Below are positions 43,797 to 44,840 of a stretch of DNA of 64,000 bases, one piece after another. Origin of the DNA: an uncultured Acidobacteriota bacterium (GTDB lineage: Bacteria; Acidobacteriota; Vicinamibacteria; Vicinamibacterales; UBA2999); the NCBI GenBank assembly GCA_963762925.1, contig CAVXMP010000022.1, positions 101,295 through 165,294 of the forward strand. The letters are read 5' to 3'. Below the pieces are notes generated by a model that worked only from the letters and a program-made list of their open reading frames with translations, ran no database searches and was not told the DNA's origin. Positions within the stretch are counted from its first letter, which is position 1. Each line of letters starts with the position of its first letter. A program made the position numbers and the translations under genes.

Positions 43797-44840
43797 TTAC
43801 TTCTTTCGCGCCAGCTCCTCGTCGATAACCGTTTGGAAGTATTCGTAGGGCTGCGCGCCGATGACGGGGCGGCCGTTGATGTACACCGTCGGCGTCGACG
43901 ACACACCGAGTTGCGTGCCGTACTGCAGATCGACGTTGACGGCTTCCGTGTACTGGCCGGCGTCGAGGCAGGTGCCGAATTTGCCGGCGTCTAAATTGAG
44001 CGCGGCCGCGTGTTCCTTCAATTGCGGCACAGCGAGCGCCTGCTGGTTGGCGAACAGCCGGTCGTGCATTTCCCAATACTTGCCCTGATCACCGGCGCAG
44101 TGCGCCGCTTCTGCCGCTTTGACGGCCATTGCGTGGTTCGGCAACGGGAAGTCTTTGAACACGAAGCGGACTTTGTCGCCGTAGCTCGCGCGCAGCTTCG
44201 TGAGGGTCGGACCGACCCTCGCGCAGAACGGTCACTGATAGTCCGAAAACTCGACGAGGGTGACCGGTGCAGTCTCGGGCCCGACGGCCGGATCATGCGG
44301 CTCGAGTTTCACATTGATCCGCGGTGGATCGAGCAACACCTTCACGTCGGTCCGCTTCTTTTTGAGTTCGTCGACGACCTGCGCGCGTGCCTGCTGTGTG
44401 CGCTGGCTCGCGAGGAATTCGACGATCGTGCCCCGCAGCTGATCGAGCGTCCGACCCTGCGCGCGGTCTTTGTTCGCGTCAAAAAACTGCTGGACCTCGG
44501 CGTCGGTGACCGGTTGCGCGCGCTTTTTCGTTTCCTGTAGCAGGTAGTCCTGTGCCGACACACCCGCGGCTTTCGCCGCGTCTTCAATCAACAGATCGCC
44601 GACCAGCTGATCGAGTGCGTTGCGCCGGTTCTGATAGAGAAGCTGGGTGACGCGTGCCTGCTCGCCCGGATCGAGAGCCTGCCATTTCTCATCGAGTTCC
44701 TTGAGTGTCACCTTGCGACCGCCAAGCTCGGCCACGACCTCGCCGCTCGTCTGACCACTCGACGGGCTCTGCGCCGCGGACGGCGTGTTACCGCAGGCGG
44801 TGACGACAAACAGGAACGCGCCAAATAGCAATCGCCTCAT
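43797..44840 (-). CDS. DsbA-like thiol:disulfide oxidoreductase lipoprotein with SurA-N-like helical N-domain; in-frame TGA (44234-44232) at the first position of the CxxC motif (candidate selenocysteine, UxxC)
   Basis: ORFs 44232..44840 and 43797..44162 share one frame (678 nt apart) with a single TGA between them. Lipobox FLFVVTAC. Read-through gives ...[10 protein letters not shown][TGA][33 protein letters not shown]...AAHCAGDQGKYWEMHDRLF... Confidence 0.75.
44202..44220 (-). promoter_or_regulatory. candidate bacterial SECIS hairpin downstream of the in-frame UGA
   Basis: mRNA: UGA CCG UUC UGC GC-GAGGGUC-GGUCC-GACCCUC. It has a 7 bp perfect stem (44220-44214 / 44208-44202) and a GGUCC loop. 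Counting the U of UGA as 1, the loop is G22 G23 U24 C25, the same positions as the apical GGUC of the E. coli fdhF SECIS. Confidence 0.55.

Follow-up and report, generated by a model that had tools for sequence, protein, structure and literature searches.

The gene described here lies in a stretch of 64,000 nucleotides (nt) of an uncultured bacterium of the order Vicinamibacterales (Acidobacteriota), in contig CAVXMP010000022.1 of the assembly GCA_963762925.1. Below we call this whole stretch “the window” and give all positions within it. The gene encodes a DsbA-like lipoprotein, which is a candidate selenoprotein, and occupies positions 43797..44840 of the minus strand. It starts with ATG (44840-44838) and ends with TAA (43799-43797). 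Translation of the minus strand from 44840 to 43797 gave 347 sense codons in one frame with one internal stop, the TGA of codon 203 (44232..44234, minus strand). The open reading frames (ORFs) 44232..44840 and 43797..44162 share a common frame, and the translation confirmed that they are split by this single TGA (44234-44232), as was supposed in an earlier description made without database searches (hereafter, the sequence-only reading).

In the alignment with Cys-containing homologues, the UGA takes the place of the nucleophilic Cys, the first of their CPFC motif. The claim that the TGA stands at the first Cys of a DsbA motif was thus correct. With selenocysteine (Sec, U) at this codon the motif reads U-P-F-C, and its resolving residue, Cys206 (TGC, 44223..44225, minus strand), is invariant in the alignment of homologues. 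The sequence-only reading also regarded the signal as a substitution and not as an indel, which holds: the 347 codons of the DsbA-like gene are free of frameshifts, while the other lesions in the window are frameshifts. The readthrough frame comprises 144 codons 3' of the UGA. If the downstream ORF is taken alone, its translation could begin at residue 227 at the earliest, which leaves out the CxxC.

A hairpin downstream of the UGA codon

We number the hairpin from the U of the UGA as nt 1. The mRNA 3' of the UGA reads UGACCGUUCUGCGCGAGGGUCGGUCCGACCCUC and includes the arms GAGGGUC and GACCCUC at nt 15-21 and 27-33, with G22, G23, U24, C25 and C26 between them. The fold reproduced the 7-base-pair (bp) stem, the loop GGUCC and the positions of G22, G23, U24 and C25 that had been read from the sequence. 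RNAfold adds the pair G22-C26, which results in 8 bp with a GUC loop and a free energy of -12.7 kcal/mol. The layout of the element is UGACCGUUCUGCGC-GAGGGUCG-GUC-CGACCCUC, where the hairpin (nt 15-33) starts 11 nt after the UGA. The hairpin GAGGGUCG-GUC-CGACCCUC at 44202..44220 (minus strand), which overlaps the codons for R-V-G-P-T-L and carries G23 and U24 (44212-44211) in its apical loop, is regarded here as the core of a putative selenocysteine insertion sequence (SECIS). A lower-stem extension to nt 9-39 (44196..44226, minus strand) is possible and weakly supported. It includes the pairs C12-G36 and G13-C35 with C14·A34 unpaired, and the extended fold has -16.8 kcal/mol; the lower-stem pairs are formed in only about 50-75% of sequences, the pair 13:35 being GC in 12, UA in 10, GU in 3 and something else in 23.

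Perfect hairpins of at least 8 bp with a loop of 3-5 nt occur 9 times per strand in the window, i.e., with a frequency of 1.4e-4 per position. Among synonymous recodings of the same peptide, 1 of 300 folds as well as the real sequence. Under the codon usage of the window, in which AGG makes up 6% of the Arg codons and AGG and AGA together 9%, the combination AGG GTC GGT CCG ACC CTC would be drawn with a joint probability of 3.7e-4.

We compared the element with the model of a bacterial SECIS (bSECIS) given in the legend of Fig. 2A of PMC13188914. According to this legend, a bSECIS has a loop of 3-9 nt on an upper stem of 4-16 bp, a G as the first or second loop base (typically in the pattern N1-G-[G|U]-N-N2, where N1 pairs with N2), a distance of 16-37 nt from the UGA to the apical loop and a minimum free energy of -7.5 kcal/mol or lower. 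The window element has 8 bp with the 3-nt loop GUC or, in the other description, 7 bp with the 5-nt loop GGUCC. The bases G22-G23-U24-C25-C26 fit the typical loop, with G22 and C26 able to pair, and the distance is 18 nt (loop GGUCC) or 19 nt (loop GUC). The energies of both the 19-nt hairpin (-12.7 kcal/mol) and nt 9-39 (-16.8 kcal/mol) lie below the limit.

For Escherichia coli, PMC8659212 describes an upper stem-loop that occupies nt 15-31, beginning 11 nt after the UGA, and names U17, G23 and U24 as conserved. The SECIS of E. coli fdhF, which the sequence-only reading cited, was given there correctly: it has an exact fdhF match in 5414 of 5426 E. coli genomes, with GGUC at nt 22-25. The window hairpin resembles it in starting from nt 15, in having G22, G23, U24 and C25 at the same positions and in lying inside the coding sequence. 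The two elements differ in that the fdhF SECIS has a bulged U17, a contact of SelB in E. coli, and a 4-nt loop, whereas the window hairpin has 8 perfect base pairs, the last of which, G22-C26, closes a loop of 3 nt; the flanking sequences are unrelated. The lack of the bulge had been pointed out previously, and indeed position 17 is here a G paired with C31. The window element is expected to work like an SECIS of the fdhF type without copying one, and its reader would be a lineage-specific SelB.

Sec and Cys forms in genomes and metagenomes

Our comparison set includes 200 related loci (about 970 kb), namely 80 loci from species-representative genomes and 120 metagenome stretches. A protein search additionally gave thousands of full-length homologues of about 348 amino acids (aa), the best with 71% identity and in general with 60-71% over 100% of the length; many of them are labelled as Vicinamibacterales or Acidobacteria. 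In the top 120 database homologues the site is occupied by Cys in 120 of 120 cases, and the peptide RVGPTL occurs in none.

TGA at exactly this codon was found in eight of the 80 species-representative loci (L001, L002, L007, L011, L015, L017, L022, L026). These loci show 60-76% aa identity and belong to metagenome-assembled genomes (MAGs) of Acidobacteriota/Vicinamibacterales from different projects and assemblers. MAGs that carry the TGA form are JBKPAJ01, JBKPDL01, JBFWQE01, JADZCN01, JBOGIV01, CAVPRP01, CAVYZT01 and JALDXK01, and the Cys form is present, for instance, in JBFWUK01 and CAWFGB01. The hairpin AGRGTCGGTCCGACYCTC is present in all eight. Two of them (L017 and L026) have G18 changed to A together with C30 changed to U, and L022 has a G·U pair. 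UGA-203 aligns with the first Cys of CPFC in 72 loci with TGC or TGT (TGY) and in the 120 database proteins. The hairpin is found in 0 of these 72 loci and in 0 of the 120 database homologues, i.e., in none of about 190 Cys forms. Most Cys orthologues read CGCGTCAACCCGACGCTC (RVNPTL) at the place, and the Cys-form locus L072 has the peptide RVGPTL written with other codons and without such a hairpin. The sequence-only reading had proposed to look for Sec/Cys pairs with covarying hairpins and considered a Cys codon followed by the same hairpin in close orthologues lacking Sec machinery as an argument against its idea. Both the pairs and the covariation turned out to exist, while the combination of Cys codon and hairpin did not occur in the Cys forms compared.

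The loci L072 3058 and L070 3058 (Archangium-type) represent Cys-form relatives with three thioredoxin_4 domains. One domain of L072 has SRVGPTL encoded as CGC GTG GGC CCC ACG CTC, a natural control in which the peptide is independent of the SECIS nucleotides.

The metagenomes were scanned with a pattern in which the TGA was fixed and the hairpin was left free. TGA at the codon was found in at least 120 metagenome stretches. Over all loci there are 134 TGA records, including 54 with the hairpin of the window type, 63 with a hairpin of a second type and 17 others. The sequence AGRGTCGGTCCGACYCTC is present in 54 of the 54 window-type records. The second type is GUCCAGC-GGUC-GCUGGAC, with the peptide RVQRSL. 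For 120 distinct TGA sequences the best local hairpin 3' of the codon, determined in an unbiased way, has a median energy of -12.7 kcal/mol, compared with -7.7 kcal/mol for the 72 TGY sequences (Mann-Whitney p = 1.6e-18). Two loops dominate among the TGA sequences, GUC (nt 23-25) and GGUC (nt 26-29).

Among 48 distinct sequences of the window type, pairs of nt 16-22 with nt 26-32 are formed in all 48, a count that is descriptive only, as the set was picked by a pattern including the hairpin. The pair 18:30 is GC in 32 sequences, AU in 10 and GU in 6, and is never broken; the pair 17:31 is AU once and the pair 20:28 is UG once. G22, G23, U24 and C26 are invariant. The choice of synonymous codons is also constrained. 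Within codons +1 to +11 the synonymous entropy of the Sec forms is 0.40 bits vs 0.86-0.92 bits elsewhere, and that of the Cys forms is 0.67 bits vs 0.78-0.85 bits elsewhere. Variation inside the hairpin falls on two codons, Arg +5 and Thr +9, which contain the covarying pair. The Arg of the hairpin is encoded by the rare codons AGG or AGA in 48 of 48 aligned window-type sequences.

A neighbor-joining tree built from 175 thioredoxin domains on 165 aa, without support values, has the Sec and Cys forms interleaved; it is too crude for counting switches between the forms or their origins.

Several further variants were seen in the metagenomes. The second hairpin type occurs in L082, L083, L086, L087, L096-L099 and about 55 more metagenome loci, with the peptide RVQRSL or RVQQVL. 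It has an alternative form CCAGC-AGGU-GCUGG, and its loop at nt 26-29 is 4 nt farther from the UGA than that of the window type. Proteins with this type are mostly shorter and lack the N-terminal SurA-N-like domain described below. Tandem thioredoxin_4 domains in one frame are encoded in L142 (two TGAs), L165, L090, L180 and L104. Each of these domains has its own UxxC TGA and its own 3' hairpin, and the products are predicted to be double-Sec proteins. The window-type SECIS AGGGTCGGTCCGACCCTC (SRVGPTL) is also found in a shorter architecture without the SurA-N-like domain and with about 125-131 codons before the UGA (L092, L131, L133, L144, L151, L182 and others). Thus a near-invariant RNA element is common to otherwise quite diverged proteins.

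Authenticity of the TGA and translation downstream of it

In a contig from another sample, L137 (JGI soil metagenome), the gene with its flank shows 91.6% DNA identity to the window, and the TGA and the hairpin are both retained. The 202-aa N-terminal product of the window gene (the NCBI/ENA copy) shares a cluster (identity of 90% or above) with three more sequences of 202 aa from JGI and Logan; the four are distinct, and each ends with ...EFSDYQ. Since L137 and this cluster share the TGA, a base-calling error or a private nonsense mutation is excluded.

Ratios of nonsynonymous to synonymous substitution rates (dN/dS) between the window gene and the eight Sec orthologues, calculated by the Nei-Gojobori method, are 0.14-0.38 downstream of the TGA and 0.08-0.33 upstream of it, i.e., the part after the TGA is translated and under purifying selection. 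The downstream frame comprises about 143-147 codons in the single-domain TGA records that have the 3' end on the contig.

TGA serves as the ordinary stop in 7 of the 15 window genes supported by Pfam. We also scanned the window for an in-frame TGA that is flanked on either side by coding-like sequence and accompanied by a bSECIS-compliant hairpin. The DsbA-like gene was the only credible case in 64 kb. A second match, at 35772, is spurious: its ORF is antisense to a MacB/FtsX gene and has no Pfam match.

Domains and predicted structure of the protein

Pfam was run on the readthrough protein with Cys substituted at residue 203. Residues 181-341 match Thioredoxin_4 (PF13462) with 125.3 bits at a gathering score of 23.2 and DSBA (PF01323) with 81.5 bits at a gathering score of 25.6. 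This Thioredoxin_4/DsbA-like catalytic domain is encoded by 43818..44300 (minus strand) and has T316-P317 at the cis-Pro position. The signal peptide with the lipobox MRRLLFGAFLFVVTAC occupies 44793..44840 (minus strand), and the predicted lipidated residue is Cys16 (TGC, 44795-44793). The lipobox pattern is [LVI][ASTVI][GAS]C, and V-T-A-C fits it. Cys16 is invariant in 44 aligned homologues, and an equivalent signal with a lipobox is found in 8 of 8 Sec orthologues from genomes.

Residues from about 24 to 152 (44385..44771, minus strand) form an N-terminal helical domain similar to SurA-N. Its matches are just below the gathering scores both for SurA_N_2 (26.0 bits vs 28.5) and for SurA_N_3 (24.3 bits vs 27.2), while many homologues have precomputed matches to PF13623/PF13624. 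The protein had been called a lipoprotein fusion of SurA-N and DsbA; its DsbA domain and lipobox are borne out, and the SurA-N part is weaker than was stated.

As a structural model we used the AlphaFold2 prediction for the closest Cys orthologue, P0001, which is 71% identical to the window protein (predicted local distance difference test, pLDDT, 88.3; predicted template modeling score, pTM, 0.75). Residues 1-29 of the model, i.e., the signal peptide, the lipobox and a linker, are disordered. The N-terminal domain is all-helical at residues 47-167 with pLDDT around 90 (helices 47-57, 59-93, 97-108, 114-127 and 133-167). The C-terminal domain has the DsbA fold: the CxxC is located at the N-terminus of helix 206-225, after strand 195-201, and the Thr-Pro of the cis-Pro position precedes strand 320-323.

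Foldseek and sequence matches in PDB, namely DsbA/TsdA, ScsC, BdbD and Wolbachia alpha-DsbA1/2, cover only the C-terminal domain of about 170 residues. The N-terminal half of the P0001 model had no PDB match in the whole-chain Foldseek search. DsbA/TsdA of Corynebacterium diphtheriae (4pwo, 7unn), ScsC (4gxz, 4xvw, 7rgv), BdbD of Bacillus subtilis (3eu3) and alpha-DsbA1 of Wolbachia (3f4s) have a root-mean-square deviation of 1.9-2.6 Å and 22-33% identity. They share the thioredoxin fold with a helical insert, the CxxC at the N-terminus of helix 1 and the Thr-Pro at the cis-Pro position. Unlike the window protein, all of them are Cys enzymes, and none has a SurA-N-like domain.

The helical insert contains a second pair of cysteines, C248 and C291, whose codons are at about 44099-44097 and 43970-43968. 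This pair does not vary among the 44 homologues, which points to a structural disulfide. A second pair is likewise present in Wolbachia alpha-DsbA1 (PDB 3f4t is its C97A/C146A mutant).

Relation to known families and state of annotation

Thioredoxin-fold selenoproteins with UxxC have been catalogued since 2005-2006 as “DsbA-like” (PF01323/COG2761) and “DsbG-like” (COG1651, now NF041057), and the 2026 review PMC13188914 includes both. The novelty attributed to the protein by the sequence-only reading was therefore overstated. The best NCBIfam match of the window protein is NF041057 (E = 7e-34, model positions 84-246 of 247), the family of Rcas_1661 thioredoxin-like (seleno)lipoproteins. The window protein shares with it the catalytic domain, the alternation of Sec and Cys in UxxC and the lipoprotein nature; it has both the U-P-F-C motif and a lipoprotein signal with the lipobox VTAC. 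The match scores 117.5 bits against a cutoff of 190 bits, which makes the protein a relative of the family and not a member. The 247-position model lacks the SurA-N-like helical domain of about 180 residues. Other Sec-form architectures from soil metagenomes score 43-123 bits with NF041057, also below the cutoff.

“DsbA-like protein form 1” is a PF01323 family with UxxC that was described from the Sargasso Sea in 2005 and is known in Anaeromyxobacter, Desulfovibrio and Desulfotomaculum. We compared it with the window protein by the family description. The likeness consists in a PF01323 match above the gathering score, UxxC with Sec as the first residue and an SECIS directly after the UGA. The difference is that form 1 is defined on proteins of the COG2761/FrnE type, whereas the window protein is of the Thioredoxin_4/COG1651 type and has a lipobox and an extra N-terminal domain.

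In public records (P0121-P0153) the Sec-form genes are called as truncated proteins of about 200-214 aa. In NCBI they bear the name “hypothetical protein” (MCC7181078.1 and MCC7035561.1, the latter on 50 contigs). In JGI the truncated products are named “SurA-like N-terminal domain” and in one case “G:T/U-mismatch repair DNA glycosylase”, and homologues of the Thioredoxin_4/COG1651 type are named “protein-disulfide isomerase”.

Neighborhood of the gene

A multi-pass membrane protein of 594 aa is encoded at 41934-43718 on the same strand, 78 nt downstream of the DsbA-like gene. Pfam gave no match for it at E ≤ 1e-3. It is also the next protein after the gene in L001 and L002 (60% identity) and in L137 (99% over the 79 residues present). 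Upstream are genes of a hypothetical protein, a DUF5989 peptide, an SxtJ-like segment and a carbamoyltransferase. The upstream genes are common to the Sec loci L017, L150, L120, L001 and L002 and the Cys loci L014, L058 and L021. This shared synteny means that the Sec and Cys forms are orthologues at one locus. The genes of the neighborhood lend no support to the “envelope cluster” of the sequence-only reading, understood as a dedicated envelope operon.

The DUF5989 mini-protein (46054-46239, minus strand) and the SxtJ-like segment (46443-47162, minus strand) adjoin the broken carbamoyltransferase; L001, L002 and L021 likewise have a DUF5989 gene upstream of the DsbA-like one. The carbamoyltransferase is spread across at least three frames, with three ORFs that match positions 240-346 of the Pfam N-domain and 7-91 and 91-126 of the C-domain. 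A gene of the aconitase family is present in two ORFs (positions 100-240 and 336-463), and a Ser/Thr kinase ORF overlaps a WD40/PD40 ORF in a different frame. AFOR (137-280 of 385), GGT (2-146 of 512), MatE, M28 and ADH_N are partial. Regions with broken genes are 46443-48378, 21818-23877 and 55756-56502 on the minus strand and 12442-15025, 57588-58415, 25819-27219, 24539-25678 and 38497-41455 on the plus strand. This picture suggests an assembly rich in indels (long-read?) or decay of the genes. At 1661-4996 (minus strand) a protein of 1111 aa is encoded, with an N-terminal zf-HC2 domain (anti-sigma-type zinc finger) and a C-terminal CHAT protease domain.

Discussion

It is very probable, judging by the comparison of sequences, that UGA-203 is recoded through the SECIS described above and that the inserted residue is Sec. 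The steps of the process can be outlined on the basis of the established bacterial Sec pathway. SelB with GTP and Sec-tRNA(Sec) would bind the mRNA hairpin 11 nt after the UGA, where G23 and U24 are presented in the loop. With UGA-203 at the A site, SelB would hand over Sec while competing with release factor 2 (RF2), and translation would go on through the remaining 144 codons. The pre-protein would then be exported and lipidated at Cys16. In the periplasm Sec203 and Cys206 would cycle between the selenol/thiol and the selenenylsulfide, with formation or exchange of disulfides in envelope proteins. The protein is thus presumably a membrane-anchored periplasmic thiol-disulfide oxidoreductase with Sec as the attacking residue, which may work in the direction of an oxidase, like DsbA and BdbD, or of a reductase/isomerase, like ScsC. 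The helical N-terminal domain possibly holds unfolded substrates or mediates oligomerization. The genome presumably encodes the cognate SelB, SelA, SelD and tRNA-Sec.

Several observations weigh against this conclusion. ARAGORN found no tRNA-Sec in the window or in the 200 related loci, Pfam found no SelA, SelB or SelD domain in about 50 window ORFs, and a local tblastn search of the window and the loci with E. coli SelD, SelB and SelA found no Sec gene (of these queries, SelD and SelB agree with PDB 3u0o and 5lzb). These negative results are uninformative because the window and the approximately 970 kb of loci are a tiny fraction of any genome. A single GTPase match, at the edge of L174, is LepA/EF4 and not SelB. 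Acidobacteriota are documented Sec users; we found no report in the literature of Sec use in Vicinamibacteria or Luteitalea. As for the RNA, the bulged U17 required by E. coli SelB is absent from the hairpin, and no SECIS was matched in Rfam, either at the gathering threshold in the whole window or at a permissive threshold in 44140-44270. The latter is explained by the fact that Rfam holds no generic bacterial SECIS model. The only match, to c-di-GMP-II on the opposite strand, is due to chance. Taken as a whole, the 71-nt region has an ordinary stability in comparison with dinucleotide shuffles (z = -1.1), and therefore the case rests on the local hairpin and, above all, on the genome comparison. 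There, in turn, the covariation of the core stem comes mainly from one base pair, and the pairing count has the selection bias mentioned above. Finally, the window is rich in frame-split or partial genes, i.e., the assembly is not pristine, although the TGA itself is corroborated by other assemblies.

The state of the assembly leads to one alternative, that the TGA is a nonsense mutation or an error of sequencing or assembly and the gene is a pseudogene or two ORFs with an incidental hairpin. Many window genes are split across frames, and public gene callers do stop at this TGA. But the same TGA is present in eight genomes, in at least 120 metagenome stretches and in the 91.6%-identical contig from another sample; the 144 downstream codons are open with dN/dS of 0.14-0.38; the hairpin strictly accompanies the TGA; and the other lesions in the window are frameshifts, of which this gene has none in 347 codons. 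The comparative data effectively refute this explanation, and we consider it hardly credible. A chance that we regard as practically negligible is that UGA is reassigned to Trp or Gly throughout the genome of the lineage. UGA reassignments exist in some bacteria (an example is PMC13462651); here, however, this is refuted by the TGA that ends 7 of 15 Pfam-supported window genes at the expected protein length. Moreover, the aligned residue of the homologues is the catalytic Cys and not Trp or Gly, and there is one credible in-frame TGA in 64 kb.

Two other explanations accept the TGA and its hairpin as functional. Termination at the UGA could be the main outcome, giving a 202-residue SurA-N-like lipoprotein, with the hairpin serving for mRNA stability, pausing or attenuation. 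The truncated product holds the whole helical domain, and in E. coli the insertion of Sec competes with RF2 and is usually inefficient, so some truncated product is to be expected. At the same time, purifying selection acts on the downstream DsbA domain in the same way as on the upstream part, this domain has no start of its own upstream of the active site (the first is at residue 227), and the hairpin fits an SECIS in spacing and loop bases and is absent whenever the codon is Cys. Consequently we give this explanation very little weight. It is also quite improbable that the same SECIS/SelB route is used by a non-canonical tRNA that inserts Cys or another residue, resulting in an ordinary CxxC product. 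The inserted residue cannot be told from the sequence alone. Non-canonical insertion of Cys at UGA is a rare exception, while Sec/Cys pairs at the nucleophiles of thioredoxin folds are the standard signature of true selenoproteins. Besides, a costly combination of UGA and SECIS for Cys would be unparsimonious when sister lineages use TGC at the orthologous locus. A 2018 work, as it is cited in PMC13582414, can be counted in favor of Cys insertion.

Taking Sec insertion as the preferred explanation, we considered two extensions of it. The UGA sits after the complete SurA-N-like domain, which allows one to suppose a selenium-gated locus with two products: a full chaperone-oxidoreductase in the presence of selenium and, in its absence, a stable chaperone-only lipoprotein of 202 residues, terminated by RF2 and having a function of its own. 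This is an unlikely scenario; if it is true, repeated switching between Sec and Cys at a single orthologous locus across Vicinamibacterales would reflect selection on the switch. Likelier than the two-product locus is a large unannotated clade of exported selenoproteins, which would be present in roughly a third of the sampled species representatives of an abundant soil order. The Sec form is found in 8 of 25 orthologous species-representative loci, a biased proportion, as one of the six search peptides contained Cys.

For specialists the finding is unsurprising: UxxC selenoproteins of the DsbA-like and DsbG-like kinds are known, and here we have a further, well supported member. Public databases mis-annotate this subgroup as truncated hypothetical proteins, NF041057 does not reach it, and a dedicated model would correct many annotations in soil MAGs. 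The two well-populated SECIS variants, with GUC at nt 23-25 and GGUC at nt 26-29, could help to refine bacterial SECIS models. Sec and Cys orthologues at one syntenic locus are a convenient pair for studying what Sec gives to a periplasmic disulfide catalyst. With this protein, the abundant soil group Vicinamibacterales gains an exported, lipid-anchored selenoenzyme, and if the large unannotated clade is real, it would mean a substantial overlooked use of selenium in aerobic soils.

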